This document shows, piece after piece, positions 7,604 to 63,983 of a stretch of 64,000 bases of DNA (positions are counted from its first letter, which is position 1; each line of letters begins with the position of its first letter). Origin of the DNA: Lytechinus pictus (lineage: Eukaryota); contig NC_087245.1 in assembly GCF_037042905.1 (NCBI RefSeq), forward strand, positions 27,406,001 to 27,470,000, given 5' to 3'. The notes under the pieces were generated by a model. That model worked only from the letters and a program-made list of their open reading frames with translations, was not told where the DNA came from and made no database searches. The translations under genes were made by a program, and so were the position numbers.

Positions 7604-7774
7604 GTACACGATTTCAGACCGTAGACCAAGGATTTGATGTCCGAGGTCATGAGTAAAGGCTGAAGTCTGACAGTCAGAGGTCGGGGACAAGGCCCAAGAC
7701 TGACTTCATGGGGCCAAGGCAGCAAGATCAAGTGTCCGAGACCAAGGACCTCAAACCTCCTGAATTAAGGCCTG

Positions 7775-16404: not shown

Positions 16405-16636
16405 GTGAATTCAGTGATGTTTGTTTATTCTTAACTTACACATACTAGACAAAACATTATTTCAATCCCTTTGATATAGTTTTAAAATACATTATAGTAT
16501 AAGGAATGCAAAGCAGGAGATGAAAGGATGGCAATGAAGAGGGAATGTGAAGCATGAGATTAGAATGTAAAGCACGAGATGAAGAAAGGAGTCAATGTAG
16601 AAGTGGTGAGATCAAAGGAAAGGTAACATCAAAGGA

Positions 16637-18335: not shown

Positions 18336-18710
18336 ATCAAATAGAATCATTCAATACTTTGTGTTCAAAATAAACTCCGACAGTGACACGACATTTGCTT
18401 CGACGACGGGTTTTATTTTCTCTAAAATATATGGTTAGTTAGGGTTGCAATAGGGTTTCATGTAAGGTTTAGGATAAGGTGTAGTGTTAAATCCAGGGTT
18501 GAAGTTGATCAATCAATTCATGTGTGAAATTTGCATTGGAGCAACTGTAGCCGGAGCAAAGGTGACGGAACCGAAATAATTAACCGTTGTACTAGCAAGA
18601 GAACAAACATCCCTCCTATATGTTCATAAGAATATATAAGCACTCTATTTTACGGAGTGATGTCTTAAATCATACATATATTTGTGTTTTCATCAACTCT
18701 GATCGAATAG

Positions 18711-19007
18711 CTCCTCTTACCCCTCCAACGATCACTGGAGGTACAAACATTACCCTCGCTACCATCCGTCGATCCGTCATCTTAACCTGCTCCACCATAA
18801 ACTCCTACCCTGTGGCCGTCATCCGATGGTATGTTGGAGGGATGGAGCATCCTGGTACCAGTCATCATCGGGAGAGACATGGGCGTTTCGATGTGACGAG
18901 TTACCTTGAGCTGGTAGTAGATGGAGAGGACGATGGCCTTGGGATTATCTGCAAAGTATCGTCGCCATTGAAGACTGTCGAGAAGGCAGTTAAATTGACT
19001 GTTTTTG
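18711..19007 (+). CDS. Ig receptor exon: Ig domain 3 (C2-set)
   Basis: ATAG acceptor and GTATGT donor, phase 1-1; LTCSTINSYPVAVIRWY..FDVTSYLEL..DDGLGIICKV. Confidence 0.9.
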
Positions 19008-19599
19008 GTATGTTAATCATCATATCTTTATCTCATGCAGACCTACCGTAATGCAAAAAGACCATTTAAAGTAGTTTATGACGTTTTTTCTCATTACCAT
19101 ATTTTTTTGGTAGAAATGTGTATGCAATTACATGTACGTGTTCGGTTCTATTATCAAGATTGTGGTTAAACCTTTCTCCAATCTTCCCCAAGGTATGGCA
19201 TGAGATATGTTTCATGCGACTAGAATGATGACACGAGTTCATTACCAATTATAATGAATAAAGATTATCGCGTTTGTTCAATCGAAATTATATTGTTTCC
19301 AGTACGATTTATTTTTTCATCTGGAAATTGTAATTAAAAATCTATCTAAAGCTATTTGAGAGTATGAACGGCCGAGTCGTATCAAACACGTTTTAAGTTG
19401 GAACCTTCTGCCTACTAGCATGGCGCTCAGCATTTGGAAGGGCCTATGAGGGGAAATTGTAATATGTTATGATAAAATTATGCAGGACCCGCTGCAGCGC
19501 GCAGGTAGAGATGCTTTGTAACTGAAGTGGCTGCTCTTGGCAAATAAAACGTTATTATGATTATTATCATATCACTATCATTATCACAACTAACTGCAG

Positions 19600-19872
19600 C
19601 CCCTCCCCTGAGCCTGACTGTCAATTGGACGGAGAGCCCTGTGACAGAAGGCGAATCGCTGACGGTTCTCTGTACTGCACACGGCGCCAATCCAGCGCCA
19701 CATGTCTACTGGGAAAGGCCAACACACAGAATCAAGGACACCCTTCAGCAAAATGAGAGTTTGCTCCACCTATCTCACGCGACCAGAAAAGACGCGGGCC
19801 GCTACAGTTGCCTTGCTGAAAACCAGATCTCCTCTGCTCCTTCCATTAGCAGTTTTACACTTCTCATATTCT
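19600..19872 (+). CDS. Ig receptor exon: Ig domain 4 (I-set)
   Basis: CTGCAG acceptor and GTAAGG donor, phase 1-1; EGESLTVLCTAHGANPAPHVYW..DAGRYSCLAEN. Confidence 0.92.
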
Positions 19873-20178
19873 GTAAGGACAAAAGTAAAAATTACAAATA
19901 CTGTATTCCTGTGAAAATGAGGCCTACATCAATAGGCCTACTCTTGTTAACCCTTTAGAACTTACCGGATTAGGGTAGAATACCAATACCGTTATGAATA
20001 CTTGCATATAGTACATGTATAATGTGAAGGACGATACACAGTCATGACTGTTGAAGTAATTGAATCCTACTTCAGTTTTCCCGGAAATCTTGAAACCTTT
20101 TGTAAAACTGATGAAGAAATGAGTGATAACCAACAGACAGGTAATTTTCATGGACTCATTCATAAGTGTAATTTTTAA

Positions 20179-20772
20179 AGGGATGGTCCAGGCTGGAAAT
20201 ATTTATATCTCAATAAAGAGAGTAAAATTCATAGAGCAAAATGCTGAAAATTTGATCAAAATCGGATAACAAATAAAGTTATTGAATTTTAAAGATTTGT
20301 ATTATTCTGGTGAAACAGTTCTAGGCATGTCTTTATGAATATTCATTATGTGGGCTGATGATGTCATATCCCCACTTGTTCTTTTGTATTTTATTATATG
20401 AAATTAGGTTTATTCAAAATTGTTCTACCAAAAACTAAAACAATTGGATTGACAATTGATTTAGTGCATTAGTTATTCATTGCCCCAACTTATTTCATTA
20501 TGATGGAGACACATCATTTACACATGTATGAAAAAATGAAACATTTATGATTTCATGTAATACCATAAGAAAAAGGAAAGTGGAGATGTGACATCATCAG
20601 CCCACCTAATGAATATTCATTACGATGAGCATATAACTGTTTTCATAACATATTGATAAACTTTAAAATTCAATAACTTCGTTATTTGTTATCCGATTTT
20701 GATGACATTTTCAGCATTTTACTCTATTTATTTAGATATATATATATATATATTAAAGCCTGTACCATCCCT
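20179..20772. mobile_element. Kolobok-type MITE
   Basis: TTAA|AGGGATGGT ... ACCATCCCT|TTAA with long imperfect TIRs; same family at 40508-41085. Confidence 0.85.
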
Positions 20773-20810
20773 TTAAGAATAGATGTAAGTGCCACTTGCA
20801 AACTCATTAA

Positions 20811-21399
20811 AGGAAAATTAAACCTTTGAACCAAGATAGCTTGTGTGAAAACAGAAAAATCAAACAAATAGATCAACGATAGTTTGAGAAAATGGAATAA
20901 ATAATAAGAAAGTTATGAGAATTTGAAGTTTAGATCATTATCATAATGTAGATCCTCCAATTGGCAATTCAACAAGATGTGTGATGTCACATGCGAGCAA
21001 CTTTCCCATTACTTTTCTACATATTTCACTTAAACTGCCTGTTTTATCACATCTATTATCGTAGATCATGTATTCTTTCTATAGGAGGGCATGTAATACA
21101 GATTTGAAAAAAAAATACATTGTGGATAAAGAATTTTTATCACCATAAGAAAGAGCAAAATAAAGAAAAGAAGAAAAGAAGACATTATGGGGGTATTTTA
21201 TAGTCCATCACAGGGAAAGTTGCTCACATGTGACGTCATACATCTTTGTCGCATTGCCATGAGAAGGATATCCATAGCATTAGTTATCGCAATATTGAAA
21301 TGCTCATAACTTTCTCATTATTTGTCCGATTTTTATCAAATTTTCTTTGATTTGTCTCTTTCCACACAAGCCCACTTCTTCCAAAGGTTTAATTCCCCT
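20811..21399. mobile_element. Kolobok-type MITE (second family)
   Basis: TTAA|AGGAAAATTAAACCTTTG ... CAAAGGTTTAATTCCCCT|TTAA. Confidence 0.8.
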
Positions 21400-21784
21400 T
21401 TAAGTTTAAGAGATGACGCGGGAGGCTTTGCACGAGATCGACGTTTTTGGTATTGTTGGTCGAACTGCCCATTGACTGCTTAATCATATTTTTTATTAAT
21501 TGTTTTATTTCGTTTCTCTTTCCCTTCATTTCTTACATGAATTCTAAGTTGTAAGAATTTCAGATCTAGATTAGATTAGACATATTGTTCTTTTCTAATC
21601 TGATGATCCAAAAAGAAACTCTTTCATTTCATATCAGACTGTAAAGCGGAATACATTTTTTTCCAATGACATGGAAACTGTTATTATCTCAATGTACCTG
21701 ATAATAATGATGATTTCGGATAAGAATATCACATGACATAAAATAATCTACCGGCAATTTAATCGATTTTTTTTTCTATTCCAG

Positions 21785-22072
21785 ATGAACCAGTGATTTT
21801 AACTAAACTGCGAACCGTGATTATTCCCCAACAGAGGAGATCTGTCAACATAACGTGTGTTGCAGAGGCAATTCCACCCCCTGTGATCAAATGGACTAGT
21901 CAATATTACGTCACCAATCTCTCTCGACCAATAACATTGATTTCTGGGACTGTGATAATAGGTATCCTAGAGATACCTGGAAATCGAGGCGATCTGCCTT
22001 TCACATTCCACGTCATGTGTTCAGCAAGTAATATTGTTGGAAGAACGTCATGGACAACAGAAATAAGATATG
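21785..22072 (+). CDS. Ig receptor exon: Ig domain 5
   Basis: TTCCAG acceptor and GTAAAT donor, phase 1-1; VNITCVAEAIPPPVIKW..VMCSASNIVG. Confidence 0.88.
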
Positions 22073-23033
22073 GTAAATTCAAACAAATTCTGAATCAAGA
22101 ACTCATTATGTTGATATCAATGGGGGAAAAACTATTGATGATATTGTGAGCGGGAACGATTTTTTTCAATTCGATGACGGGGAGATAATATACCTGTTAG
22201 CGCTTAAACACTACAATGTATGTCTTTAGCGCCTTATGAATAAACATATTGTTATTATTATTATTATTATCATTATTATTAATATTATCACTATTATCGT
22301 TATCATCATCATCATCAACATCATTATTATTATTATAAAAATGTAATTTGCTTAATCGTTTAGGATGAAAGCAACATACGAAGTTGTAAAAAACACAGAT
22401 TGCGGATTAACAGTAGAATTCGAAAGGAGAGAGCAAATAGGCAGGAAGCGTCATAGCGAGATAGTGGTAGGGAGGGAATAAAGGATTGCAAAAGGAAAAA
22501 TAAACATGTCAACATGGCCAAGATAGAACTAATAACTCCAATAATGGATGAGTCCTAAAACAAAAAGTATGTTAACAAAGAAATCCTTTAGCCGTAATAT
22601 AATTCGAGTCAAAATGTTTATCCCACCACTCTCACTCTTCCTAAAGTTGGAATTGTGCCTTGTGCCTCACATTGTAACTTTTAGATTTCCTTTATTATGA
22701 AGAAATCGTGTTCATTTTCTGTCCCACCTCCTCCCATTCATTTATTTTAGAATACTAGATCTATATCTGTGCATAGGTTCACGCGAAAATCATCGACTCC
22801 GTTCTTTCGGTAGTGAGTGGATTTTTAGTGAAATTATGATATTTTATCCTCGCTGATAATTTTGAACTGACATAGTGTCGCTTTTGGTAACATAACATTT
22901 CTTGCTAGTTCTGTGAACGTTTTAGGATGTAAGGGGAAAGCAGTCGACATGTAAACTCGTATAACGTTCAAACGCCATTTTGACGTAGGCCTATTTAAAC
23001 ATATAAAATTATCCTTTCCTTGATTAAATCTAG

Positions 23034-27064: not shown

Positions 27065-27757
27065 CATGCCAATTTTATGCAGATCGTTCTACACAAAATG
27101 TTAATCCATTTGAGAGAAGCAAATCGGCAGTATATCCTACGAAAACCTGATGCCTCATGGGTAAAATTTAAAGTCCAACGCCATGACGACACCCGAATGA
27201 TTATTTATGAACCTTGGACAAGAACCGTCATCTCGGGGATGCCACTTTTATGCAGATCGTTCTACACAAAATTTTAATCCATTTGAGAGAAGCAAATCGA
27301 CAGAATATCCTAAGAAAACCCGATGCCTCATGGGTAAAATTTAAAGTCCAACGTTATGACGACACCCTAATGATTATATATGAACCTCGGACAAGAACCG
27401 TCATCTCGGGGATGCCACTTTTATGCAGATCGTTCTACACAAAATGTTAATCCATTTGAGAGAAGCAAATCGGCAGTATATCCTACGAAAACCTGATGCC
27501 TCATGGGTAAAATTTAAAGTCCAACGCCATGACGACACCCGAATGATTATTTATGAACCTTGGACAAGAACCGTCATCTCGGGGATGCCACTTTTATGCA
27601 GATCGTTCTACACAAAATTTTAATCCATTTGAGAGAAGCAAATCGACAGAATATCCTAAGAAAACCCGATGCCTCATGGGTAAAATTTAAAGTCCAACGT
27701 TATGACGACACCCTAATGATTATTTATGAACCTTGGACAAGAACCGTCATCGCGGGG
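27065..27757. repeat. Tandem repeat, 4 x 173 bp arranged as two 346-bp dimers
   Basis: ATGCAGATCGTTCTACACAAAA recurs at 27077, 27250, 27423 and 27596, with alternating diagnostic variants. Confidence 0.95.
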
Positions 27758-29948: not shown

Positions 29949-32581
29949 GTAAGTTTTGATTAACAGTAGTAGTTGAGTTGAGTTGAAGCCTAAATTGAGT
30001 TGTAATATTTAGAGTAACGCAGTGTAGCGTATAGTGTAGAGGGTACATACAATGTAGAGTGTATATTGTAAAGGGTTGTAGTTAGTGTATTCGGGTTAGG
30101 TCAGTTTTTTTTAGTCTTGTGTATTATTATCAAGTCTAGTCGTCTAGTCTATAGTCTTATCTATTCTGATCTGGTGTTGGTTTCGGATTTGACTTTGGTT
30201 TGGTTCAGTTCAAGTTTGCATGGTTTGATTAAATTACGTTTAGTTCAAATGATTTCAGAGTTATCTGAGTTTGATATAATCTCACTTAGTTTTACTTATT
30301 CAATAAACTTTGGAATAAATGTTATCATGTTTCAGTGTAAAAAGAAAAACAAAGCCCCTCTCCACCCAATATCATGACAATTTACATGTACAGTATATTG
30401 GATATATTTCATATCAACTTGATATTACATATATGCGAGAATGGGGAAAAATGCATGCGAGAAATGAGAGGAGATCAGGAAAAACCATGCCTTGTTTATT
30501 GAATCATATATGAATGGTGTAAAATCAACATTAAATAACGATTCCATTTGACCAAACTGCGAATTACATTTTTTTTGTTCTGTGCGCACATTCATCTCTA
30601 AGCCTCGTGAAAAAGCACTGCGAAATAGCCTGAGGATAAGACTTTGCCTTTGTTACATTTCGACATTTCCAATTTCCTCCCCGGAGTGATAATCATGATA
30701 ATGGTATGAAGTAGCATTTGAAGTCCGAATAAACCAATCCAACTGCATACTTTTCCGATATTCTAAAGTCTCGTTTGAGGTACAGCTGAAATAATTCCAT
30801 TTATGAAGGAATCCATGTTTTCCGGATTCCCATTCGATTCGACAGGTCATTGACTCATTAACGTCATGCGTACGTCAGCGCATGTACATGTAACAAGAAC
30901 CATTTTTTTTTTATTATTATTTTATTTTACTATCATAAGTTTTTATATCGTTTATATTTAGCATTAATAACCAGGGCGGGGTTGCAGGGTGGGTCATAGT
31001 CTGCAGGCACAGACCCTTTGTTTTCGCATTTTACATAGTGCATAATGCAGAGTCTGAAATAGTGAGACTAGATTCACTATGTACTGACATTGACTTTGGC
31101 ATTTATAGTCTTCACTCTAGACATGGTATAATCGGTTAAAGTATCAAATATGAGTCTGTGCTTGCAGACTAGGTGGGGGAAGGGGGCGACCGCCTCCCCA
31201 TGACTGTACTAATTCTGAGGTATTGATCAGAATACAAAATTATCAAACAGAAGATAAGAGAAGAAAAGAGGAATAAAAAGAAAAAAAACAGAAAGAAGGG
31301 CATATATAGATTTATTTGTAATAAAACTATATATTACCCCTATACACTGTAGTTCAGATTTAGGTCCCCCTCCCATGACTGTATGTTTTTTTATTAGAGC
31401 TCAACTTATTAAAAAAATGAAATGAAAGAAGAAGAAAGAAATAAGAGGAAGATGGAAGAAAAAGGAGCATAAATATGGATTAATTACCCATGAAAGGCTA
31501 TATTATTCCTGTAATTTAATTAATAACTTTAAGGTCGGCTTGTCCCCCCCCCCCCCCATTTTCAAGAAGTTACAAAAATAGGAAATAAAGAAGATAAAGA
31601 GGAAGGAAAAGATAGAGAGGGTAAAGAGGAGCACAGATCGACTTGCCCCCCCCCCCACCCACACCAAAATACCTGCGCCGCTCCTCATTTTCTTAATATT
31701 TCGTCAAAAGAAGCGATGTTTTTGGGCTGAAACAATTAGAATATGCTGACTCGCATGAAATCAAATGAAATCAAAAACTTAAAATTCTAATATGTTCTTT
31801 TTTAATCTTAGATGCATTTTTTTTCTCAAACCTTCACCAATATTTTTTTTTAGTTATTTTGTTGTTGTTGCCTTTTACAACAAACATTTTGTTAGGGTGA
31901 TTATATACATTGTATTGAATTGGTTTGTTAATTTGAATTGCATTTCGCATGATGATTTTGAAATGTGAAATCTATGTATCTATTTTGCTAAAAATCATGA
32001 TGGAAATAATGAGAGTTTCAAGCTGCGCTGATGTAAATATTGGAAATATCTTGAAAATGTCAACATCGAACATGAAATTACTCGATGAATGCTGGGGCTC
32101 GCATCACACCCATGCTGGTATTTCGAAAGTTGCAATTTACCGTGATTACAGCGTAATGAAAAATGTAATTAATGTTAAGAGAGGTGTGACGATGTTCCAC
32201 GTTGTATTCACGTGAATGTTATTACTTTATATCTACTGAAAATGATGTCATAAATAGCATGAAGTGGATTTTATGAAATCATTAACCTAATTCTTAGCTG
32301 GTAATATGAAGAATATGGATTTGAAGTTATGTAACTATTTCGTTGATGTTAATTGAATATCTCACCCCCCCCCCTCTTCCCCTTTGTCTATAATGTATTG
32401 TGTAATGATAGCAATAATAATGATTTAGTATTTGACGAGGTGCTCAGAAAGAAATGTCTTAGTGCTTACTGCTAATCATTCCCATATTTCATTTGTTTGT
32501 GAGATATTGGGGATGTTGAAGATGGTAAGTAAGTTCTTTAAAATTGCCAAGTGTTTGACGCAGGGACTATTTTCGGATCTG

Positions 32582-32726
32582 GAGCCCGTTGCAGAAAGAG
32601 TTGCGTTTAAACGCAAGTCAAAAAATAAATTGCAAGTCCAAAATGGGCGCTGTTGATTGGTTACAAATGAAATTGCGCCTGATTTTTAGAGTTGCGTTTG
32701 ATTGCAACACTTTCTGCAACGGACCC
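32582..32726. mobile_element. Harbinger/PHIS-type MITE, same family as 7775-7919
   Basis: CCCGTTGCAGAAAG ... CTTTCTGCAACGGACCC. Confidence 0.75.
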
Positions 32727-33823
32727 CCGCACGCAATAACCTAGAAAATTTAACAGGGTGCACGTACGGACAACGACTAGGATATACAAAATTAAGTTTA
32801 ATCGGAATATGATGTTACCTTATCAGGATGCGATACACTCTTTAAAAGTTTGGGCAAAAAAGGGGCCCAATTTTTAACCATCGCTGGGCAACATACTGCC
32901 CACACAACTTTCGGTTAAAATGTGTCCAAATTGGGTAATAAAAACTGATAATTGGGTAATAAATTTGTTCAATTGGATAATAATTACCTTGAATATACAT
33001 ATTTTTTTTACCAACATACATTACCCAACACGGTGGACAGTATTCATTTCATTTCATTTATTTCACTTCCATCAAACAAAAACAAATTGTATACCATATA
33101 TAAAACATAAATATTTGTATCCGTTGCAAACAAAATTAATTATACATATGTAGTGAAAAAAAAACACTTAGACGATTCGGGCAACACATTGTAGGCTTTA
33201 AATATATATACTATTTTTCAATAGAAATTAAATTAAGATTTAATTAAGTATGTTGCCCAACATTAAGTGTGTATATTATACAAGTATATACACAACCAGC
33301 GCAATGTTCAACGCATCATGAAGCCTATATATGTCTGATACAAAAGAATTGAAATGTCATCATGAAAGATATATAGGGCTTTTTTATTCATGTAAATGTC
33401 ACCGTGTAACCTGTGACTAGTGTGAAATAAAGAGTATGGAAAAGTAATGAATTAAAAAATATTCAACTCAATTAAATGAATATCAAAAGTATCACATTGT
33501 CTGTCTGCCTCTCTCTGTGTTGTTCTACCCACTCCCCTATATAAACGATCATCCTAATATTGCAGCCTTAACATGTTTTTTCACGTTGATGATAATGTTT
33601 CCACAAAATGTTCGTCTTCACGAAATAACATTTTTCAAAGAAGCTTAGAATCCGTCATAGACTTTACATATGAAACTAAACATCAATGTTTTCCAAGAGG
33701 AGGGGGGGGGGGGGTAAGAATTTCCGTCACCCCCAGCATTATAACTTCAGTTATTAATACTGTGAAATTATTCACTATCTTATCAATATTTATATTATTT
33801 CACGTTTATTTCATCTATCACAG

Positions 33824-39082: not shown

Positions 39083-39222
39083 TAGAACAAGATGGAAGGC
39101 CTTAAGCGGTTGTCTTGGTCGATCTTGTCCCTTTCCTCTATCAAAGTGGCCTCTCCTGAAAAAAGAGTTGATTCAAGTTTCAAAGGAATCAAAGGCGTTC
39201 AAAATGATTGGGGAGACGTCAA

Positions 39223-39815
39223 AGGTCAAGTCCATCCCAGGAAAATGCTGACTTGAATAAATAGAGAAAAATCAAACTAGCATAGTACTGAAAATTTCAT
39301 CAAAATCGGATGTAGAATAAGAAAGTTATGACATTTTAAAGTTTCGCTTATTTTTCACAAAACAGTGATATGCCGCGAACTAGGTGAGTCAGTCGAAGAT
39401 GTCCATCACTCACTATTTATTTTGTTTTTTATTGTTTGAATTATACAATATTTCATTTTTTATAGATTTGACAACAAGGACCAACTTGACTGAATCATAT
39501 AGTATTAAACAATGCTAATTCCACATGTTCACTGAGGAATTAATCCTTGTATCACTTGACAATGAGGAGAAAATTAGAATATTTCATATTTCATATAATA
39601 AAATACAAAAGAAATAACGAGTGGATGATGTCATAGTCTCCTCAGTTGCATACCAGCCAGGATATGCATTAACTGTTTTGTGAAATTAAGCGAAACTTGA
39701 AAATGTCATAACTTTCTTATTTTACCTCCGATTTTGATGAAATTTTCAGTGTTATGCTTGTTGGATTTTTCTCTTTTTATTCAAATCAACTTTTTGTTGG
39801 GGGTGGACTTGTCCT
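39223..39815. mobile_element. Kolobok-type MITE (third family)
   Basis: TCAA|AGGTCAAGTCCA ... TGGACTTGTCCT|TTAA with long imperfect TIRs; a partial copy starts at ~50047. Confidence 0.8.
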
Positions 39816-40171
39816 TTAATGCAATAGGCCCTTTGTAGCATTATTTTTTCTTCTCCTGGAGACAGCACAGGTCTCCATCTGGTTTATTGTCTTACTGGTA
39901 TATTAAAACAGAAAATAACAACGGTCTGATATTTCTTTTCATAGCCATTGATGACATATCGATCATAATTATTGCAAGAGGCCAAATTGAAGAAGGGTTT
40001 GACTTGGTTGGAATAATTACAGTTTTACCTTTCTTGTTATCAATTGTACCGATTTGACCACTGGGTGTGACCAGCTGTGTCACTGTTTAAAACTGAATCA
40101 TCTGTTTTGTTAGATTTTTTTTGCCCGTGAAAATCTGGCTTGTCTTAGAAGAGCGCGAAAACTGAACCCCT

Positions 40172-42841
40172 GGGCCTGTTTCATGACGAGATGAGCGATA
40201 CGTAGGAACATCCAAGGACCATTCTTCCGAGAGAGGAAGATTGGCGACAAATCAGCGCTTTCCGTTTCACGAAGGCAATTTTGGCTTCCAAGTCCGCGAC
40301 ATTGTTTGATATCGACAGTATCGTCAGCATTACGTAGTCGTCACCTGAACTTTTTTTTATTAAACAAAATGAAAATACATAAATGATTTAGCGTGTTTAG
40401 TAACATCTTAGTTTTTAATCATTTGTTTTTGCTGAACTTAATAAAGGCATGTTGTTTTTACCATACATAGATTTTCTTTTCTTTAAATGCGTTTTCATAA
40501 CCTTGAAAGGGATGGTCCGGGCTGAAAATATTTATATCTTAATACATAGAGTAGAATTCACTGAGCAAAATGCCGAAAATTTCATCAAAATCGGATAACA
40601 AATAATAAAGTTATTGAAGTTAAAAGTTCAGCAATATTTTGTAAAAACAGTCGTCATGAATATTCATTAGGTGGACTGATGATTTCACATCTCCACTTTC
40701 CGTTTTCTTATGTTATTACATAAAATCATAATTTTTTTCATTATTTCATACTTATGTGAACAATATGTCTCCCTTATAATGAAATAAGTTGCAGCAATAA
40801 ATATCTAATGCACTAAATCAGTTGTCAATCCAATTTTCTAGTTCTTGGAGGAAAAAATGTGAATAAACCTAATTTCATATAATAAAATACAAAAGAACAA
40901 GTTGGGATGTGACATCATCAGCCCACCTAATGAATATTCATGACGACTGTTTAAAAAAAATATTGCCAATTTTTAAAATTCAATAACATTCTTATTTGTT
41001 ATCCGATTTTGATGAAATTTTCGGCATTTTGCTCATATCTACTCTATTTATTACGCTATAAATAAATTCAGCCCGGACGATCCCTTTAACTAATTACACA
41101 GCATGCCGGTCACTTCAGAGAGGTTAAAACCTATTTCGATATTTTGAGTTTGGTTCATAATGGTTAGTTTCGGTCATGTCCGCTCATTTGGTTTACGTAG
41201 CAGACGATGCTAGCCTGCTAGTATATAGTATACTTAGGCAGACCCTATTGCAAATCAAAATCAATTTTGGACTCGATATTTGCTTCCTCAAACTGTAGCT
41301 ATTATAAATATCAGTACGCAAAGCTTTATAGTACAAGAATATTGTTATATACTTTCAACATTAAATGCGTTAATTAAGTTTGTTTGGACTGTGTAAATTG
41401 TTTCAAATGAAAAGGGTCTAGGAACGGAAACTAACATACGTTAGTCACGTGACGTTGTACACAGAAATATGGCATGTTCTGCCTGCTCGATCTCAAAGTT
41501 TGGGAGAAAAATGAAATGTAACCATTATACCAGTCATAAAGTATTATACATCAAACTGTAGGTAATCTATTTAGGATTGAGATGACAATCAATCTCGACC
41601 TTTTTTACCCTTAGGGATATTCCAGTGGGAAAACAAAGGTGCCAGTGTCTCGAAAATATGGGTGGTTTCAGACCGTTTGTCATAGCAAGAGTTGTGAACA
41701 TGCATGGACACTTTCAAATAAACAGCGAGACGTAAATAGTGAATTAATTGTAATAATATTTACATCAAATTAATGGAATTGGATAAGATTTTGACACTAT
41801 TATCAATCTGGTGTGAGATTATTAATAGTTATAAAGATATACCCGGATTTCTGCAATATTACGTTCATGAAAACCATGCACTGTTCCCTGTGTTGAAGCT
41901 GTGTGTGTGGACTTTCGGACATTTAAATGCACGCGACTAACCATTATGAAAAAAATGGAAAAGGGTGGGGAAAAATAGGAGAAAAATAAATGGAAACATA
42001 CAAAAAAACATTGTTTGGACCTATTACCCTGAAGAAGTTAAATTGACATTAGTTTTGGGTCGTCTTGCCGCGGGCAATCAGACGACCTGAAAGTGATGCT
42101 TGTCCCCAAACAAATATATTAAAAACTTAGCGCCATCCCGGATAAAGTGCATCAGCGTGCAATAGACCAGTTTGGTACTGCCTCATGGCCGCTTTTGGTC
42201 AAATGGCCTATCATTTTTTACATTGTGATAGGCAGATTTCAAAGAAAGATATAATGTAAGCTAATTGCCTTACATAGCAGGATGCAGAAATTGTTTAGAC
42301 CAAGTGACTAGAATAGCATACCAATTAATTAATCTATGAAAGTATTTGTTGCATTTTTTACTTCGAATGCATTAACAAGTTGCTATAACAATGTAGGCCC
42401 TACTTGGCCATCTGTAAAATACCAAGCGCTTGTGGACGCGCGCATTGTTGTTTTTTGTGTGGATCTTATGAAAAACAAAATTCAAAAGAATATATATATA
42501 ATCAAGACATCAAAGTTGGTGATTATTATTAAACCACCATGTCACTTTTAGTGCGAATGACCTTCTTCTGATCATGCGCAGAATCGATCCGAATGACACA
42601 CACACACAAAAAATGTAAAGAAAAGGTGATATGTCAGCTCGGGTGGCTTGCGGTAAACGCATTTTCTCTATAGTTCAGATGCCGACGGTGGCGGGCGGTG
42701 GGCAAAGAACATTTTGCATATGTCTGGAGCTGTCTTCTTTCTATCCCCTAAATTGGCTTCGTGAAACAGATAGCGATATCACGTTCTGACTATAGACATG
42801 ACAGAGCGCTTCTACCAAAGACCCTTTCATGAAACAAGCCC
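40172..42841. mobile_element. Large non-autonomous Harbinger-like element with nested insertions
   Basis: GGGCCTGTTTCATGA ... TCATGAAACAAGCCC termini and subterminal inverted GTTTCACGAAG / CTTCGTGAAAC; TSD unclear. Confidence 0.55.
40508..41085. mobile_element. Kolobok-type MITE, same family as 20179-20772
   Basis: TGAA|AGGGATGGTCCGGGCTGAA ... TTCAGCCCGGACGATCCCT|TTAA. Confidence 0.85.
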
Positions 42842-43026: not shown

Positions 43027-44040
43027 TTCTTGGTTCTTGGTTCTTGGTTGTGGTTCCTCCAAAATACTCCTAATGGAATTTTAACTGGAGGTTGTGGTGG
43101 TTGAGGGTGGATTTAGGGAGTTTTTAGAATCGCAGCTTTAAATTTATCTGGGTCAGTTTGACATACCAGGGTAGGGTGGAGATCATTCCACGATGCAATT
43201 GTGCGGGGAAAGAAGGAGTTCTTGTACACATCGAGCCTGGAAGATGGTACCTCAAACTGGAAGGAATGTCCCCGTCTGTTCCTATTTGGTTTAGGTTTAG
43301 TGTTCGCTCGGGCGTCTATATCAAGTTTGCCATGTAACATTTTGAAGAAACAGCTTAAACGATGTGCTTCGCGTCTCTCTTGGAGAGAATTCCATTTGAG
43401 TGAATTTAGAAGTTGGGTAACACTTGATTCTCTTTCATATGTATTTGTTACAAATCGGGCTGCTTGTCTCTGGACTCGTTCAAGGGAAGAGATATTTTTG
43501 GATGTGTAAGGGTCCCAGGCAGCGACTGCATAATCCAGATGTGGTCGAACAAGGGTAAGATAGAGTCTCTCTTTGACAGAAGTTGAGCAATGATGGAAAT
43601 TTCGTCTAAGGAAGCTCAGGACTCCTATTGCTTTTGTTGTTGCAAGGTGAGTTTGGCTGTTCCATCGGAGATCATTTTGAATTACAACTCCGAGGTATTT
43701 GGTCTGCTTGCATTCGTCCAAGGTGACACCGAGGATATCATATGAAGCTTCACCTGGTTTCTTCTTTCTTGTAACACGCATTGATTCACATTTCTGGGGG
43801 TTGAAATTCATTCCCCAGGTTTGTGACCATTTGACCATTTCATCAATGTCCTTCTGAAGAATATCTGGGTCATTTGTTGATTTAATTGGGCGATACAGCA
43901 AACAGTCATCAGCAAATAATTTAGTAGTACTCCTAACTTTATCGTGAATATCGTTTATATAGAGCAAAAACAGATGTGGGCCGAGTACAGTACCCTGCGG
44001 CGTTCCACTAAGTACCGGCTGCCAATCAGAGTGCTTCCGA
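43027..44040 (-). mobile_element. 5'-truncated CR1-clade LINE (3' half of RT plus tail)
   Basis: SGTPQGTVLGPHLFLLYIND..FADD..KYLGV..LVRPHLDY..SFFPRTIASWN; (AACCAAG)n tail on the minus strand at 43027-43050. Confidence 0.92.
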
Positions 44041-44434
44041 TCATTCCTTCGAGATTACTTTTACTGGTCTTTAAAACAACTGACTAACGTGTGGATGCCG
44101 AGTTTACAGTAGTAGGAAGACAGTTCCAGTATTCAATCACTCTCTGACTAGAACGTTTTCATTAGCAATGAGTTGCTTCTGCAGCTTCATATTATTTTGT
44201 CCCGGGTTATTTTGGTGACCATAATTGAATTAGTTTGGATAAGCCAAACTTTTTTTTTTTTTTTTTCTCCCCGGGATTTCTCTGATACCCTGCTCGTTTA
44301 GCCTCATTTCTTACGTGGTTGCCATCGAAACCGATTTCATACCTAGTTTGGTGCTTAGGTGTTCAAATGAACTAGAACTATAATAAGCTAGGGCAATTTA
44401 TTTACGTATGACTCGCGCACTTATATTGCATCCA

Positions 44435-46817
44435 CCAACGAACGTAGAGGGCAGCAACACACAAGCGTGTTGCTATAAGGAAGGTCAACTCGATACGCGC
44501 ATGCAGCTGAGCTGCGCGCGTATTTTATTGTTCATGCCAACGAACGTAGAGGGCAGCAACACACAAGCGTGTTGCTATAAGGAAGGTCAACTCGATACGC
44601 GCATGCAGCTGAGCTGCGCGCGTATTTTATTGTTCATGCCAACGAAATCAAATGCCGATCAAATACAACAACAAATTAGTAGCGATCAAAAAACGAATAT
44701 GAAAGAATATGACTACAACAATATCAAAGATAACTTAAAAAATATGTTGAGGAATATACATACATATAAAAACATACTTTGATATTTAAAACTTTACAAA
44801 TATAAGTTTCAGGAAACTAAAATCATTACCAAATCGGTGATTGTTGTTATCAGCGATTTCACCAGACGGCTGTATTAGGTGATTTGCGTCGAGACGATTT
44901 TGTGACCACTCGCAAAGCATTTCGGGATTGAATATAACCACCTTATTTTCTATGAGCTCTTCGCTGAACCCATCATCACAGTGCAGCTGCAGCGCAGCGC
45001 GCAGCCAATGCAATGCATCCGATGCATGGGTTGTTTTTTCGCCGTCCATGCCATGGTCTCGGACTCAGAGTTGAAATTTAGACCCGGATTTCGGGGATAC
45101 AGCGCCTTTATTTCAGATTTATAGACTTAAAAGTCAAATGACATTTAAAATTTGAAATCTAACCTTGAACAATCATCGTTGATAAACATCAGCCCTGAAG
45201 CCATTACACTTCAAATCAGGCCAGGCAAATTAGACGTCATTGTCTAAGTTGCTAGATCTATGACGAGTCGCCTGAAGCCCCAGCGCATCATCAACGTCAC
45301 TAGCTAGCTGCGCGACCGGCCCAGACTCGGCGCACCCAGGCCAGAAAAATTACCTCGATTATTACGGTGGTTGTCTATGCATTTATTAGTGGTGCAGCGA
45401 AATTCAGCAGAAGAAAATAAGAGATATGAGGTATCCTCGTCACAGGCTTATATTCCAAAATGGGGAAAAATGTCAAAATCATGATTATTTAAGCTAAATA
45501 TTTTCTTTAAAAATAAAAGTAATATTTTTAATATTTATACCCAGAATAACCGATCTAATAATTGTTCATTAAAAAATATTTGAAGTTAACAAATGAAAAA
45601 AAATCAACTCGACAAATTTCCAAAAACCCCACCTTATTTTTTAAAGTGGTCACAAACTTTGAGCGGAGTTGACCTTCCTTAGAGCAACACGCTTGTGTGT
45701 TGCTGCCCTCTACGTTCGTTGGTTCATGCCAACGAAATCAAATGCCGATCTAATACAACAACAAATTAGTAGCGATCAAAAAACGAATATGAAAGAATAT
45801 GACTACAACAATATCAAAGATAACTTAAAAAATATGTTGAGGAATATACATACATATAAAAACATACTTTGATATTTAAAACTTTACAAATATAAGTTTC
45901 AGGAAACTAAAATCATTACCAAATCGGTGATTGTTGTTATCAGCGATTTCACCAGACGGCTGTATTAGGTGATTTGCGTCGAGACGATTTTGTGACCACT
46001 CGCAAAGCATTTCGGGATTGAATATAACCACCTTATTTTCTCTGAGCTCTTCGCTGAACCCATCATCACAGTGCAGCTGCAGCGCAGCGCGCAGCCAATG
46101 CAATGCATCCGATGCATGGGTTGTTTTTTCGCCGTCCATGCCATGGTCTCGGACTCAGAGTTGAAATTTAGACCCGGATTTCGGGGATACAGCGCCTTTA
46201 TTTCAGATTTATAGACTTAAAAGTCAAATGACATTTAAAATTTGAAATCTAACCTTGAACAATCATCGTTGATAAACATCAGCCCTGAAGCCATTACACT
46301 TCAAATCAGGCCAGGCAAATTAGACGGCATTGTCTAAGTTGCTAGATCTATGACGAGTCGCCTGAAGCCCCAGCGCATCATCAACGTCACTAGCTAGCTG
46401 CGCGACCGGCCCAGACTCGGCGCACCCAGGCCAGAAAAATGACCTCGATTATTACGGTGGTTGTCTATGCATTTATTAGTGGTGCAGCGAAATTCAGCAG
46501 AAGAAAATAAGAGATACGAGGTATCCTCGTCACAGGCTTAATATTCCAAAATGAGAAAAAATGTCAAAATCATGATTATTTAAGCTAAATATTTTCTTTA
46601 AAAATAAAAGTAATATTTTTAATATTTATACCCAGAATAACCGATCTAATAATTGTTCATTAAAAAATATTTGAAATTAACAAATGAAAAAAAATCAACT
46701 CGACAAATTTCCCAAAACCCCACCTTATTTTTTAAAGTGGTCACAAAATTCGAGCGGAGTTGACCTTCCTTAGAGCATGCAACACGCTTGTGTGTTGCTG
46801 CCCTCTACGTTCGTTGG
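44435..46817. mobile_element. Unclassified TIR element (outer copy, ~1.19 kb net) carrying a nested copy of itself
   Basis: ~57-bp TIRs CCAACGAACGTAGAGGGCAGCAACACACAAGCGTGTTGC...; CATCCA duplicated at 44429-44434 and 46818-46823. Confidence 0.9.
44537..45722. mobile_element. Inner copy of the same TIR element (1186 bp)
   Basis: Both TIRs complete; TTCATG duplicated at 44531-44536 and 45723-45728. Confidence 0.9.
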
Positions 46818-46869
46818 CATCCACCTTAGCGCCACTTACGACGAACTTCCAGAAGGGGCGATTACGAAA

Positions 46870-46950
46870 ATGGAAAGTGTCCTGAGAATCTGTTCCAATT
46901 CATTGCGGGGTACTCTATGTAGATTTCATATTTTATCTAATTCACACTCG
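46870..46950 (+). CDS. MRPS14: Mitochondrial ribosomal protein S14, inferred exon 1 (targeting presequence)
   Basis: AAAATGG start; MESVLRICSNSLRGTLCRFHILSNSHS is Arg/Ser/Leu-rich like a presequence; phase-0 GTAAGT donor matches exon 2. Confidence 0.7.
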
Positions 46951-48240
46951 GTAAGTACGATTCAATAGTTTTAGTTAATTGTTAAGGAAATAAATGCTAT
47001 AAAACTGAGTTTAAAACGTTACTACTTAGCCTAGTGAAGTAGTTCGGTCCCACGTCATTTGATTTTGTGTTGGCCATACACAGTACACAATACATATATA
47101 GTCACGTAGCCGTAGCCCCACTCATGGGTTCAATGCATCTCGGGTGCGAAGGATTCATATGCACATGGTGCACGCGAATCTTTCACACCCTTTTTACTAA
47201 AATAACTATGCCATTATAGTTTACCTAAAGTTTCTAATTGTGCTATGAGTATGACACTTACCGAACCATATGGATCGTTTGTTGACTTCTCTTTGCTGTT
47301 TTTTTAAGAAAAAAAAAGCATTTTCTCGTGATCTTCACGTAGATGCCGCCGGATCATCGTGGATATCAACTTTTGCCTAAAGAGGACGCGCGATATTATT
47401 CAAAAGACATTTGTTTACGGTTCTGCAGCTTGTACTGCTAGCTGCATTTTAGACGCTTCGCATTATTTTCCTCTTTCTGTTTTTGTTTTGTTTTTTTTTT
47501 GCTGTCAAGCGGTGTTTTCTATTGTTTTGTAACGCCATCAGCAATGATGAAATGTAAAGAGTCGCCTTGAAATGAAGAAAAATTGTGGCACATTAATTCG
47601 TTAGTTCGTTTCCTATTTTTTTTGCTCTTTTTCTTCTTCCTCATCTATGATCAAAGGTGAATACCTTTTTTTGATATCTGTTCTAAAAGCTGGACATTTT
47701 AAATATTTTGTTCAAATAAATAAATCAACAGGATAGTAATCAAAATGCGATAGAGCTGCCCGAGCTGAAAATTCTGATACAAGGACTTGAAAATAAAACA
47801 TTCTGAGCACTTTTTATAACCATGATGAGGAGACCTATATATATATATATATATATATATATGTAGGCCTATATATGTATATGAAATAAGCTAACACGAA
47901 AAAAAGACGTTTTGGGGACTGTTAAATAAGAATTCATGAGTGGGATAGGTAACTATCTATTCTATTCTTGTTCGTTTTCTATTATTATTTGTGTGTTAAA
48001 ATATATTAACGAAGTCATGCACCATTATTATCATAAGCTAACGGATCAAAATGCGAGCGTGAAACGTGAGCTTCTTTTTTTCTTAATTCAGTCTTAACGA
48101 TACTTTTTCATCATATTTTAAAGGTGAATCTCATGATTCAAAATGATAAATGCTTGTCGCACGGGCAGAAATAGCGGGACCAACAGTTATTTTCAATATT
48201 CCGAACTGCATTCTGGATGTTGTATTTATAAGCACCTTTG

Positions 48241-49655: not shown

Positions 49656-51791
49656 TGCAAACATTAACACGAAAATCTTGCTTCCTACACACACACAAAC
49701 GCCCGCAATCTAACACACGTAATGCGAAACAATCGGGACATTATCATTTTGTTCATATATATATATATATATATATATGTATATTTTCATCTATTTAAAG
49801 CTTTGAAAATTAATAAACAACGATTCCATAGGCGAAATCTCAATGATCATTAGGAAGGTACTTTACCCATTTTCATTTTATGTCATTGTGATTATTCCAT
49901 ACTAAGGCAACATATTTTGGATATAAAAATACGTGAAGGAAATGTTCCTCTTCTGTTTTATACTCTAACAGAAAACATTTTGTTCAACCAAATTATGATT
50001 TGTATTTCCAAGTTCCATGTAGTATTTTCATTGGAAAATCTCTTAAAGGTCAAGTGCACCCCAGAAAAAAAATGTTTGAATAAATAGAGAATTATGAAAC
50101 AAGACTAACGCTGAAAACTTCATCAAAATCGGATGTAAAATAAGAAAGTTATGACATATTAAAGTTTCGCTTATTTATCACAAAACAGTTACATGCACAA
50201 TTCATTGATATCTAAATGAGAGATTCAATAATGTCACTCACTATTTCTCTTTTATTGTTCGAATTATACAATATTTCAATTCTCACGACTTTGACCAAAT
50301 AGGACCCTCTTTAAGTATATACATGAGATGCAACCTGTTGATTTTTGGTACAATTTCCTATTATATTATGCGCCGACGACTTGAATCGAGAATGTTCGAT
50401 AAGAAAAATTCGCATTTCGATTTTTGTTTGCGTAAAATCCACCGCAGTATGAAGGATGACTAAGGACGGACCGAGCGAAGTATCCTGGTTGAGATTTGGA
50501 GGTAAGCGATAAAAACACCTTTATCAATAATTTCTAATTCATTTTTAAAATGAACTAAATCATACGATCAAGATTAACATAGTGGAAAAATATTGAAAGA
50601 TTTGGCGTTTCATAGTCCCTCACATTCGTGTGATGAATGAAAACGTCAAAATGCACTATGAAATCACATGCGTTGTGCGAGGTTAGTATACTAACCTCGC
50701 ATGTTGTGTGAGTGCCGTAGGCCTATAGACCTTATCGCAAATAGATTCACGCAAAGGATCATGGGATCGCAAAGGGAGCAATAGCGCCGCTGTTGTCCGG
50801 ATGCGACCATGCGAGCGCAAGCAGCCGATAATAAAGTGTACGATTTCCATAGTGTATCAAAATACGATCGACGCCGGCAGCCAACATTTTGCTAACTTCC
50901 AGTAAACGCCTCGTCATATTTGTTCCAGAGTCTAACATCACTTTTCTTCTTAATCATGGGTGGCAGAGATAGATGTGCTGTATATAGCTGCAAGAATTAC
51001 CACAGATTTTATGAAGACAAGTGCAATTTTCTTTCATTTTCGCGCACTGTCTGTGCGTATTTTGAGCTGTGCAGCTGCTGTGCAAAGTGTGCTTGTATGC
51101 ACGGACAGCGGGCATGCACTCTCGGCCCAGGGGTACGTCGGCGAGGCAGTGGAGGAAACTGGTCCCGGAATTCCAAGCAATAATAAAATGATGATCAATA
51201 AAACAAACTCTGCAGTAGATTTGATTACTTTAGTCTAGTTATATATTTTTTGTAATATCAATCGATAGTCAAGAATACATGTTTCATAAATAATTATCTC
51301 AATCATGATTTTATTCAGAGTAGGCCTATAAACCGAGCTGTGTTTTCTTTTTCTCTCCACAGATAGGCTACATAATATTATTGCATATTATTCAGGATCG
51401 TGGTCGGACATTCTGAAGTTTTATTATTGGCATGCATAGACAAAATAATGAATGAAATAGAAAAAAATGAGAATAGATGAAAGTATATTGAGGATAAAGC
51501 TAAAAAAAAGAAATTAATGAGGAAGGTGATTTGTAAGAGAAGTGACTGAATGTGATGAAATTAATTGAAGATGTAAATGTTGAAATAAGATTTTTTATCA
51601 AAAGAATGGAATATATATCATCTATATGAATTAAATATCCATCATCTGCTAAGTTTCAGACAAAATAAAATTACAGAGAGATTGGAGGGATAGGGCCTAT
51701 ATGGGATCATAAAATGTTTTAAATTGAGGGATTTATTCATCTTTATTCTGCATGTCATAGGCCTATTATTTTGTATGTCCTTAATATTATG

Positions 51792-51891: not shown

Positions 51892-52909
51892 CAGGCATGA
51901 AAATCCTCTGCGTTTCCGCGGATTTCCGCGTTTTTTTGTTTGCTGAATTTCCATTTTTTTTACTCCTAAAATCCGCGTTTTAATTTCCGATTTTTAGCGC
52001 TAAAATGTTTTAGCATATCTTACGTGTTATATGACGTTCGGCGTTTACAACGATTGCGCAGGAATCTCTTATCTAGCACATCTCAACTCTACACGTGTAT
52101 TTCGCGGTGTGTTTTACGTTTCTGTGCATGCAGTGCAGCGGTGGTGTGCTTGCAATCGCTGGGGGCAACCCGGCGCGCCGGGCATGCAGCGACCGGGCGC
52201 GCATATCATATCGGACCGGTGGAAGACCAATAAAGAAGCTGAATGTGCTCGCAGAGATTTGTGACGTGACATGGAATTTTCATATCAGAAAACTTTCAGC
52301 GCAAATTGCTCAAGTACAAGTATGACAAGTAGCTTATTATGGTAAGACTGATTAAATTGATAAATGACTTAAGTTGATTACCGTAAACCGTGGTGACTTT
52401 GGACACCGGGGTGACTTTGGACAGTTTAGATAGGTGATGATAGGGGGATATGTGAATAATTAAATGGCTCGTTTCATTATTTACATATCCTTTATCATAA
52501 AATAACTAAATATTTTCAGAAAAATCAACGGCGAAAGGAATGTAGCTGAAGCAATCTTCTTTTTAAAAACTGTCCAAAGTCACCCCGGTGTCCAAAGTCA
52601 CCCCGGTTTACGGTACTTGATTTTTTAGTATTTTTTAGTATTTTTTTATTGAATTTTGGACAAAAAATCCATATAAATACTTCATTACAATCATTCAACT
52701 CAAACAGGTTTTTGGAGTTGTAAAATTGATAAAACCCAGGAGCTTCCGGGGGCGTTGCCCCCTGGACCCCCACTGGGGCGTTGCCCCTGGACCCCACCCG
52801 TTAGCAGCGAGCGGCAAGCCACTCGCCCGGTGGGCTTCGCCCACCGTCTTGTCAACGATATTTCCAAAACCCTTTCAGCTTTTTTTTTCATACCCAATTT
52901 TCCTGCCTG
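51892..52909. mobile_element. DNA element with CAGGC termini and 6-bp TSD (hAT-like)
   Basis: GAACTT|CAGGCATGAAAAT ... ATTTTCCTGCCTG|GAACTT. Confidence 0.7.
52381..52613. mobile_element. pogo-like MITE
   Basis: TA|CCGTAAACCGTGGTGACTTTGGACACCGGGGTGACTTTGGACAGTTT and its reverse complement ending ...TTTACGG|TA. Confidence 0.88.
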
Positions 52910-57877: not shown

Positions 57878-59071
57878 ATAAGCATTTGCCAGTGCATGAA
57901 GTGTTTTAATAAAGAGTGGCTTTTGTGCCTATGGAGAGTTATTATTTCTTCAACATTTCTTCATACAAATTATTTCAGAAATCACAGTTTGAATATTCCA
58001 TGACCTCTGATAACAAGAGCAGAATATTTTTGGTGATTAACATACTTTAAAATGATATTAGGAGAGAATGTAGTGAAGTTGTGTGAAAATAATGGCATAA
58101 TTGCTGTAGAGGCCTATGAAAATTGAAAATAACATTATTTTAAGTTTTTCCTGAAAAAACCTATGGAAAATTGAAAATGGCATAATTTACACAAGTTTTC
58201 AAAACAAAATACAATTTTTTTTTTTTTTGCAGAATTAGTACACAAGCCTATGGACAATCAATTGAACGTAAATCGAGCGCAAATTTTGCGCGTCCTCTAA
58301 AATCTTACATAAGTTACGTTCGATTTGCAATCAATTGCAAAGCTTGCGCTTGATCTACGTTCAATTGATCAAACGCAAATTGTTCTTGCAACAGGATTGA
58401 CCGTAACTTGCGTTCAATTGCAGATTTGCGTTTGATTGGAGGACTTACGCTCAATTTTGGGAGTTGCGTTTGATTTGAGTTCAATCGCAAGTTTCTTGCA
58501 ACACCCCATAAGAGTCCAAGCGACTTAATAATTCATTAGGAGAAAAGCAAAGAAACAAAATTAGAAAAAGAAAGAAGGAAAGAGAAAGGAAGAAAAGAAA
58601 GAAAGTTCAACAAAGACACAAACAGAAAGAAACAAAGGAAAAGAAAGGAGGAAAAATAAAGGAAGAAAATAGAAAATGGAAGAAGAAAGGAAAAGAGAAA
58701 TAGGAAAATAAGTAGAAAGAAGAAATAAACAAACAGGAAAGCAGGAAAAGGGAACAATTTTATGATAATTGTCAGTTTCTTTGTGCTGTTTTTTTTAAAT
58801 CTACATATGGTCAACATACACTATTAAAATGCAATAATTCTGGCCAAACCTACAGCAATAATAAGCCTGAGCTATGTTTTACGTCACGTTTTTACCTTTA
58901 CAAATGTTTTAACGTAATGATTACCGAATCATCGAAATCTGACTATTATTCAATGAATGCTAGACCTATATTGTATTTAGGAACCCAATATACAGAAATA
59001 ATTGCCATTTTGAATATCAGAATTGTTGACATTTTTGCTAATTTTTGTTGCTTTTCTCAATAAATTTACAG

Positions 59072-61361: not shown

Positions 61362-62493
61362 AAACAAGGCATAAGCGATTTTGTGTCTCGCCCACTTATG
61401 AAAATAACCAGAAATATTGTGATTTGCGAGGGCACGCAACAGAATTGTATCAAAACTTCATTGTGAAATGACTGGGATGGAATAACACTTGTCATAAGAG
61501 TCTTGCCCATAAACTTTAATGTTGACCTCAAAATGAACTTTGACCATACCATGTGACCTCCGAACACAATAACATGCAGGTCTCCTAAGTACACCTACAA
61601 CCCAAGTTTGGTCGAAAAGTGACTTACGGTTGCAGAGTTATGTGTCATAAGAGTCTTGCATGTAAAATTTAACGTTGACCTGAAAATTACCTTTGACTTC
61701 ACCATGTGACCTCAGATTGAAGAACGACATGCAGGTCTCCTAACTACATCTTCAATCCAAGTTTGGGTGAAAAGTGACTTGCGGTTGCGGAGTTAGGTGT
61801 CACAAGATAGTCTTGCATGCAAACTTTAACGTTGACCTGAAAATGACCTTTGACCTTACCATGTGACCTCCAACTGCAGCATAACATGCAGGTCCCCAAG
61901 TCCATCTACCATCCAAGTTTGGTTGAAAAGTGACTTACGGTTGCGGCCGGAGTTAGGTGTCATAAGAGAGTCTTGCATGTAAACTTTAACGTTGACCTAA
62001 AAATGACCTTTGACCTTACCATGTGACCTCCAACTGCAGCATTACATGCATGTCCCCCAGGTTCATCTACCATCCAAGTTTGGTTGAAAAGTGACTTACT
62101 GTTGCGGAGTAAGGTGTCATAAGAGTTTTGCATGTAAACTTTAACGTTGACCTGAAAATGACCTTTGACCTTACCGTGTGACCTCTGACTGCAGCATAAC
62201 ATGCAGGACCCCCAAGTCCATCTACCATCCAAGTTTGGTTGAAAAGTGACTTACGGTAGCGGAGTTAGGTGTCATAAGAGTCTTGCATGTAAACTTTAAC
62301 GTTGACCTGAAAATGACCTTACCATGTGACCTCAGACTGCAGCATAACATGCAGGTCCCCCTAGTCCATCTACCATCCAAGTTTGGTTGAAAAGTGACTT
62401 ACGGTTGCGGAGATATGTGTCATAAGGTTTGTGACGGACAGACGACATTTGGATCCCTAAGTCTCGCCTTCACCTCCGGTGGGCGAGACAAAA
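61362..62493 (+). mobile_element. Helentron-associated non-autonomous element (HINE/pearl-like) with ~6 x ~155-bp tandem core
   Basis: 5' subterminal GTCTCGCCCAC is complementary to 3' GTGGGCGAGAC; 3' hairpin, GACGGACAGACG microsatellite remnant, A-run flanks. Confidence 0.75.
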
Positions 62494-63027: not shown

Positions 63028-63983
63028 AAACAAGTGGAATGCCTCTGGCCGTCTCACCTGCATCACGCGATTCAATATAGCAGCAGTGCTGATTTTGAAA
63101 ACTACTATAACTCGCACAAGATGTTCAGTGATACTTGGTTACTCTTATTTCCACGTTTTATGAACTAGACCAATACACTTATAGAGATATGATGGCAATT
63201 CAACAAATACCCCCAACGTGGCCAAAGTTCTTTGACCTTACATGACCTTTGACCTTGATCATGTGACCTGAAACTCGCACAGGATGTTCAGTGATACTTG
63301 ATTACTATTATGTCCAAGTTTTATGAACTAGACCAACACACTTTCAAATTTATGGCTGTAATTCAACAAATACCCCAATTTGGCCAAAGTTCATTGACCC
63401 TAAATGACCTTTGACCTTGATCATGTGACCTGAAACTTGCACAGGATGTTCAGTAATACTTGATTACTATTATGTCCAAGTTTCATGAATCAGATCCATA
63501 AACTTTCAAAGTTATGATGGTAATTCAACATATACCCCCAATTCGGCCAAAGTTCATTGACCCTAAATGACCTTTGACCTTGGTCATGTGACGTGAAACT
63601 CATGCAGGATGTTCAGTGATACTTGATTAACCTTATGTATAAGTTTCATGAACTAGGTCCATATATTTTCTAAGTTATGATGACATTTCAAAAACTTAAC
63701 CTTAGGTTAAGATTTTGATGTTGATTCCCCCAACATGGTCTAAGTTCATTGACCCTAAATGACCTTTGACCTTGGTCATGTGACATGAAACTCAGGCAGG
63801 ATGTTCAGTAATACTTGATTAACCTTATGGCCAAGTTTCATGAACTAGGTCCATATACTTTCTAAGTTATGCTGTCATTTCAAAAACTTAACCTCAGGTT
63901 AAGATTTGGTGTTGACGCCGCCGCCGTCGCCGTCGGAAAAGCGGCGCCTATAGTCTCACTCTGCTATGCAGGTGAGACAAAAA
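63028..63983 (+). mobile_element. Second HINE/pearl-like element with ~5 tandem units (163,162,163,192 bp spacing)
   Basis: 5' GTCTCACCTGCA is complementary to 3' TGCAGGTGAGAC; 3' hairpin, (GCC)n microsatellite, A-run flanks; ATGTTCAGT(G/A)ATACTTG recurs at 63121, 63284, 63446, 63609 and 63801. Confidence 0.78.

Follow-up and report, generated by a model that had tools for sequence, protein, structure and literature searches.

A young non-coding transposable element with P/hAT-type ends, nested in a copy of itself

The window, by which we mean the whole 64-kb stretch of DNA that was analysed, contains a genuine nest: a complete copy of a young, non-coding element whose ends are of the ordinary P/hAT type lies inside another copy in the same orientation (Table 1). 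The inner monomer is 1184 nt long; the outer element spans 2381 nt with the nest and 1189 nt after subtraction of the inner copy and one target-site duplication (TSD). Both copies have 56-bp terminal inverted repeats (TIRs), complementary at 55 of 56 positions, tips of the form CA..TG, and TSDs of 8 bp, a length within the range of P (7–8 bp) and hAT (8 bp) elements. Neither a coding remnant nor a transposase domain of the THAP/THAP9 type was found in the eight element frames searched against Pfam, where no match was better than E 0.027. We put it slightly above an even chance that this is a non-autonomous cut-and-paste element of ~1.19 kb that inserted into itself with transposase supplied in trans, more probably by a P than by a hAT helper.

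Table 1. Features of the nested element, its flanks, and the reverse-transcriptase fragments of the window.
Feature	Position	Strand	Basis or remark
Outer 8-bp TSD, left copy, GCATCCAC	44428..44435	+	same letters as 46817–46824
Outer element, CA..TG ends	44436..46816	+	right end fixed by other copies
Outer left TIR, 56 nt	44436..44491	+	sequence comparison
Inner 8-bp TSD, left copy, GTTCATGC	44530..44537	+	outer-copy positions 95–102; same letters as 45722–45729
Inner element, complete 1184-nt monomer, non-coding	44538..45721	+	orientation as outer copy
Inner left TIR	44538..44593	+	55/56 complementary to right TIR
GC-rich hairpin, between left TIR and internal target	44595..44624	.	predicted DNA fold
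Inner copy's own unoccupied target 8-mer, then 7-nt terminus-like word	44632..44646	+	word search in element
Inner right TIR	45666..45721	-	sequence comparison
Inner TSD, right copy	45722..45729	+	same letters as 44530–44537
Terminus-like 7-mer of outer copy, directly 3' of inner TSD	45730..45736	+	word match
14-bp internal inverted repeat, left arm (candidate P-type subterminal repeat)	45987..46000	+	resampling
14-bp internal inverted repeat, right arm	46736..46749	-	resampling
Outer right TIR, with private 4-nt insertion at 46775–46778	46757..46816	-	copy alignment
Outer TSD, right copy	46817..46824	+	same letters as 44428–44435
Host flank motif, CTCF-type	46827..46839	-	12/13 to CTCF-type 13-mer, 2 nt off TSD
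LINE-type reverse-transcriptase fragment (RVT_1)	43113–44054	-	E 2.4e-15; ends ~370 nt left of element
LINE-type reverse-transcriptase fragment (RVT_1)	17024–18346	-	E 5.8e-38

The order of segments at the locus is A-A-B-target-B', which a single nested insertion suffices to explain. The two A segments (44435–44536 and 44537–44638) are identical (102/102), and an alignment of the inner B with the outer B' shows differences in 16 of its 1089 columns, made up of 11 substitutions, one indel of 1 nt, and one of 4 nt. This layout is that of a whole monomer inserted in another monomer, and no single tandem duplication produces it; in the assembly, the nesting proposed in the original prediction is thus confirmed. 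The nest itself rests on that assembly, as the nested junction is bridged by no contig among the public-run contigs listed. No further copy of the element and no other TIR footprint occurs in the 64-kb window. The GC-rich hairpin recurs 102 nt upstream, within the outer copy; the region 44592–44640 is predicted to fold as DNA at −13.8 kcal/mol, a raw energy without a shuffle control.

The exact ends were placed by means of other copies of the element. Direct repeats that span the junctions measure 9 nt at the outer copy and 15 nt at the inner copy, and only two offsets make the ends of both copies symmetric: CC..GG with a 6-bp TSD, or CA..TG with an 8-bp TSD. Because both targets start with G and end with C, the window alone cannot pick the register. 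Part of the stretch was found in 18 of 21 public runs, four of which (X1, X2, X3, and X15) were aligned to positions 45700–47400. Among the 18 of 132 loose ends listed, three rows represent the right tip: two X1 and three X15 contigs break off behind 46816, a further X15 contig, which supplies the sixth flank, breaks off behind 46819 with three flank letters matched, and no row lies at 46817 or 46818. Both contigs that reach the tip among the 28 of 1039 contig rows listed (X2 record 20 and X3 record 25) likewise end at 46816. Since five of the six listed flanks stop at 46816, and a GG tip would match through 46817, the tips are CA..TG and the TSDs are GCATCCAC and GTTCATGC; judged from these contigs, the extra G/C at the junction is target and not element. 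The flank counts listed fix the boundary and not a target preference, as flanks with an initial G could be among the remaining rows.

This register changes much of what had been claimed for the locus. Boundaries had been set at 44435–46817 and 44537–45722, with either CC..GG termini and a 6-bp TSD or an 8-bp TSD with asymmetric ends; other copies stop matching at 46816 and not at 46817, and CA..TG with 8 bp is symmetric at both copies. The word that resembles the terminus and follows the inner target is 7 nt long (CAACGAA) instead of the 8 nt given, and the 'CC' thought to be common to both targets is actually one C of the duplication and one flank base. The hexamers and the internal CCAACGAA had been positioned correctly. 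The further statement that the ends do not fit the usual superfamily rules is not supported, given that CA..TG tips with an 8-bp TSD are the pattern of P and hAT elements (PMC7776569, PMC3260210, PMC2577343). What had seemed novel was due to a boundary misplaced by one base, and the locus offers a clear case in which G..C-edged targets make an 8-bp TSD resemble a 6-bp TSD with novel ends.

Contigs of the public runs also bear on the age and spread of the family. An un-nested monomer is present in X1, where the loose end of a contig before 45722 continues from B into an A segment. An X1 contig is 99.7 per cent identical over 909 nt and, at 10 substitution sites, agrees with the outer copy at seven and with the inner copy at three, so that each copy is young and has a history of its own. 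With the copies of the window themselves ~1 per cent apart, the recent activity that had been proposed is upheld. The 4 nt at 46775–46778 are missing in all four runs aligned. The X3 element is set apart by fixed differences from the copies of the window, and the flank in X3 is 94.6 per cent identical, which suggests a close relative; at the orthologous flank, record 26 of the same run matches 46826–47084 with 88 unaligned letters upstream, as would be expected of an empty site. Element depth in X3 is ~200–450 times the flank depth, which is no copy number in itself and suggests that the family may have hundreds of copies. Pieces of the element at 99–100 per cent identity occur in X1, X15, and X2, and the flank at 46840–47067 is uncovered there apart from one X15 bin; as low coverage explains the missing flank equally well, we draw no inference of horizontal transfer. 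Some X3 and X15 contigs match just the outer 25–37 nt of the TIR and then diverge (at 46699–46792 and 46780), a pattern that points to sister families with the same tips.

The inner insertion lies next to a sequence that resembles the element's own end. Directly after the inner TSD stand the first seven bases of the tip, CAACGAA, in the sole internal copy of this word in the element (background rate of 2.4e-5 per position). Of the first 29 TIR bases, the site agrees with 17, which is the top score among 2308 internal starts, and past the first seven bases the likeness is weak (10/22; background 0.025). The outer target does not fit complementation with the terminus (2/6). One unmixed public flank, visible through its likeness to the flank in the window, has a G..C 8-mer followed by CAA, and five of the six other flanks listed start with a letter other than G, as random choice gives (P = 0.70). 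By composition, the chance of G..C edges at both targets is ~0.001. These two to three targets hint at target selectivity, and the mixed flanks of other copies show no fixed target.

Self-insertion and terminus-like target flanks are, in principle, already known for P and Ds. The tips of the P element complement three bases beside the target, and P re-inserts beside its earlier insertions and has an insertion hotspot at its own bases 19–26 (PMC2577343); Ds elements also occur nested in one another and then cause chromosome breakage (PMC3260210); and double insertion yields P and hobo dimers (bioRxiv 10.1101/158386). In these tandem dimers, as here, the second copy lands at an 8-mer that has terminus sequence behind it, and this 8-mer is retained at the junction (bioRxiv 10.1101/158386). 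The terminus-like word described here is, in contrast, internal and 7 nt long, and the product is a nest instead of a head-to-tail dimer. The 7-nt match exceeds the published 3-nt P rule; the match may reflect a fossil left end, single-stranded tip pairing, or chance.

No transposase was seen, so the superfamily is judged from the ends and the two targets. TSDs of 8 bp have been described for P elements (PMC7776569, PMC1562414) as well as for hAT elements (PMC3260210, PMC3517528), and many families share conserved CA..TG tips, which are hence not P-specific (PMC2577343). From the target motif and the internal inverted repeat we lean weakly to P over hAT. Compared with the 14-bp motif published for P, the targets agree at 8/14 and 9/14 positions (background 0.031 and 0.007, with two sites and six models scored without correction), and a flank-only P score of 5/6 is not significant (background 0.06). 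The internal inverted repeat of the outer copy is 14 bp long, a length reached in 2 of 300 resamples; the inner copy has a repeat of 12 bp (44899–44910 with 45645–45656), which is not significant (23/300). Subterminal repeats of P and of zebrafish Pdre2 measure 11–12 bp (PMC7776569, PMC10983969). With the Drosophila P element and P-MITEs the family shares CA..TG tips, a GC-rich 8-bp TSD with G..C edges, A/T bases adjoining the TSD, an inverted repeat in the interior, a target site within its own sequence, and non-coding high-copy derivatives (PMC7776569, PMC2577343, PMC1562414). It differs from Drosophila P in its TIR (56 bp versus 13–32 bp), in the terminus match beside the target (7 nt versus 3), and in the position of the self-target (95–102 versus 19–26), and no THAP site was identified in it.

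The course of events that we favour would begin with the insertion of one copy into low-copy DNA. Later, a second family member would have inserted after position 102, in the same orientation, by 8-bp staggered integration, duplicating positions 95–102. The DDE transposase would have been supplied in trans, more likely from the P superfamily than from hAT, and the internal site may have been chosen as a P-type palindromic target with terminus-like bases flanking the duplicated 8-mer, comparable to the hotspot of P inside itself.

The same structure and the same event could have been served by a hAT helper of the Ac/Hermes/hobo type, with the nest corresponding to a double Ds in direct orientation and the terminus-like word to chance or a relic; we regard this as possible, if on balance doubtful. 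Double Ds is an inverted arrangement, whereas the nest here is direct. The 5' tip pattern of hAT elements is Y-A-R-N-G; the first five bases of the element fit it, as do the printed Ac and Mar TIRs, and a literature search found no published source for the pattern. Besides this fit, the 8-bp TSD, and the CA..TG tips, a hAT helper would agree with the G..C target edges, which are a published preference of P, Hermes, and hobo and fit Hermes (4/6; background 0.026) and hobo (5/8; background 0.043) at one site each, with scores similar to those of the P motif. Non-autonomous hAT elements (maize Ds, double Ds, Drosophila Mar, and Hermes/hobo) also have a filler interior of ~1 kb and include family members nested in one another (PMC3260210, PMC3517528, PMC10368747). 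The TSDs nevertheless fit neither the Ac pattern nTnnnnAn (PMC10368747) nor the Buster pattern nnnTAnnn (PMC3517528) in full, by eye and at two sites, and they match just 1 and 2 of 8 positions of the Ac/Ds target consensus. Hermes-type AAGT words, 12 in 1184 nt, are scattered, with none in the first 190 nt. At 56 bp, the TIR exceeds the 5–27 bp of hAT (PMC3517528), which weighs little because derivatives can lengthen TIRs; it also exceeds the 13–32 bp of P. A published rule assigns elements to one family if they share TSD length and positions 1–11 with at most one mismatch (PMC4455052); by eye, the element agrees with the printed Ac TIR at 5/11 and with the Mar TIR at 4/11 of these positions, and the published supplementary TIR tables could hold a closer match.

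Accounts that dispense with a second transposition, or with a P/hAT-type transposase, fare worse. Slippage between terminus-like words might have doubled A, and a separate duplication, gap repair, or assembly error might have doubled B, in keeping with the identity of the A copies, the 8-nt microhomology that bounds them, and the unbridged nested junction. This route, however, requires two events with a breakpoint overlap that equals the TSD length of the outer copy and with one breakpoint exactly at the tip; moreover, 13 events separate B from B', both of which have private changes against the X1 contig, and zero differences in 102 nt would be expected ~30 per cent of the time at the B/B' divergence. 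An origin of the nest by slippage or assembly is therefore unlikely. Even less credible, in our view, is the unclassified family of the original prediction, in which the ends would be CC..GG, the TSD 6 bp long, and targets with CC preferred. This is the second of the two symmetric solutions that the window allows, and it would account for G..C edges at both targets, which are already covered by the published preferences of P, Hermes, and hobo. It requires a G at 46817 in all copies; this G is absent in five of the six listed flanks, two contigs end at 46816, and the same aligner extended through three matching letters in the sixth flank. Equally implausible is the Crypton-like integration of a circle by a tyrosine recombinase at att-like sites, where the tips of the TIRs would serve as arms around a core of 6 bp. 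Recombinases of this type work on inverted arms with a 6–8-bp spacer, and Cryptons have 4–6-bp terminal direct repeats (PMC3212892); one arm-like half is present at the inner target. Against this, the 6-bp register is wrong, the two duplications have different sequences and are both perfect copies, the flanks of other copies show no relationship to one another (agreement 0.59 and 0.67), and the Cryptons described in PMC3212892 are without TIRs. Membership of Crypton or Dada, classes with a terminal repeat or TSD of 4–7 bp and, for Dada, insertion in small-RNA genes (PMC3212892, PMC8869645), was rejected on the TSD of 8 bp. No small-RNA gene was found in the 64-kb window by Rfam or ARAGORN.

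A motif scan was carried out with a 13-mer of the CTCF type. Positions 9–21 of the TIR match it at 13/13, and the outer flank matches it at 12/13, 2 nt from the TSD (a post hoc test). Outside the element there are five such matches in ~61.6 kb, and a random site has a ~0.3 per cent chance of a match within 20 nt. The other four, with one mismatch each, lie at 2622, 7401, 23767, and 27809, and a later copy of the adjoining 8-mer at the same offset was seen at 27809 alone. No such motif adjoins the inner target; these data show no fixed motif rule and offer a lead at most. A limited literature search found no printed discussion of a CTCF-type motif adjoining such insertions.

It is conceivable, though we think it rather unlikely, that sequence guides targeting beyond the 3-nt P rule. 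An incoming single-stranded tip might pair over several bases with the terminus-like word beside the target, in which case the element would bring along a landing pad of its own, which might be a fossil left end at position 103. Alternatively, the transposase or a host CTCF-type protein might link the TIR motif to similar motifs in the genome and thereby set the insertion a fixed few bases from the motif. Should the 7-nt match or the spacing of the motif hold across the genome, this family would offer a natural test, over hundreds of insertions, of the proposed link between transposon tips and target choice.

Searches for exact TIR patterns gave no match in metagenome contigs (for the pattern with the extra C), viral contigs, or prokaryote genomes. 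An 18-nt TIR pattern that hit 40 metagenome loci was dismissed as chance: all 40 matches stop at 18–19 nt, and the next 38 bases match at 7–14 positions.

The rest of the window has ~36 per cent G+C, immunoglobulin-domain exons, and two reverse-transcriptase fragments, which mark it as animal DNA. A series of exon-sized frames at 14106–22149 (+), with immunoglobulin domains in both frames scanned, is probably one cell-surface gene. A high-copy repeat extends from 47118–47400 onward, ~300 nt to the right of the element; its depth in X3 is as high as the element's, and X1 and X15 contain it too, at ~91–99 per cent identity. Related palindromic elements of ~600 nt lie at 20166–20780, 39221–39817, 40503–41099, and 50043–50306 (the last partial). 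Their ends start with AAAGG and adjoin T/A bases, and they resemble TTAA-target Kolobok/T2 MITEs. Small elements with inverted ends occur at 1264–1936, 6660–6946, 7772–7918, 32579–32727, 52379–52615, and 58257–58369, of which those at 7772–7918 and 32579–32727 are a single family. Tandem arrays were found at 27066–27757 (unit of ~173 nt), 61490–62430 (~154 nt), and 63109–63915 (~163 nt).
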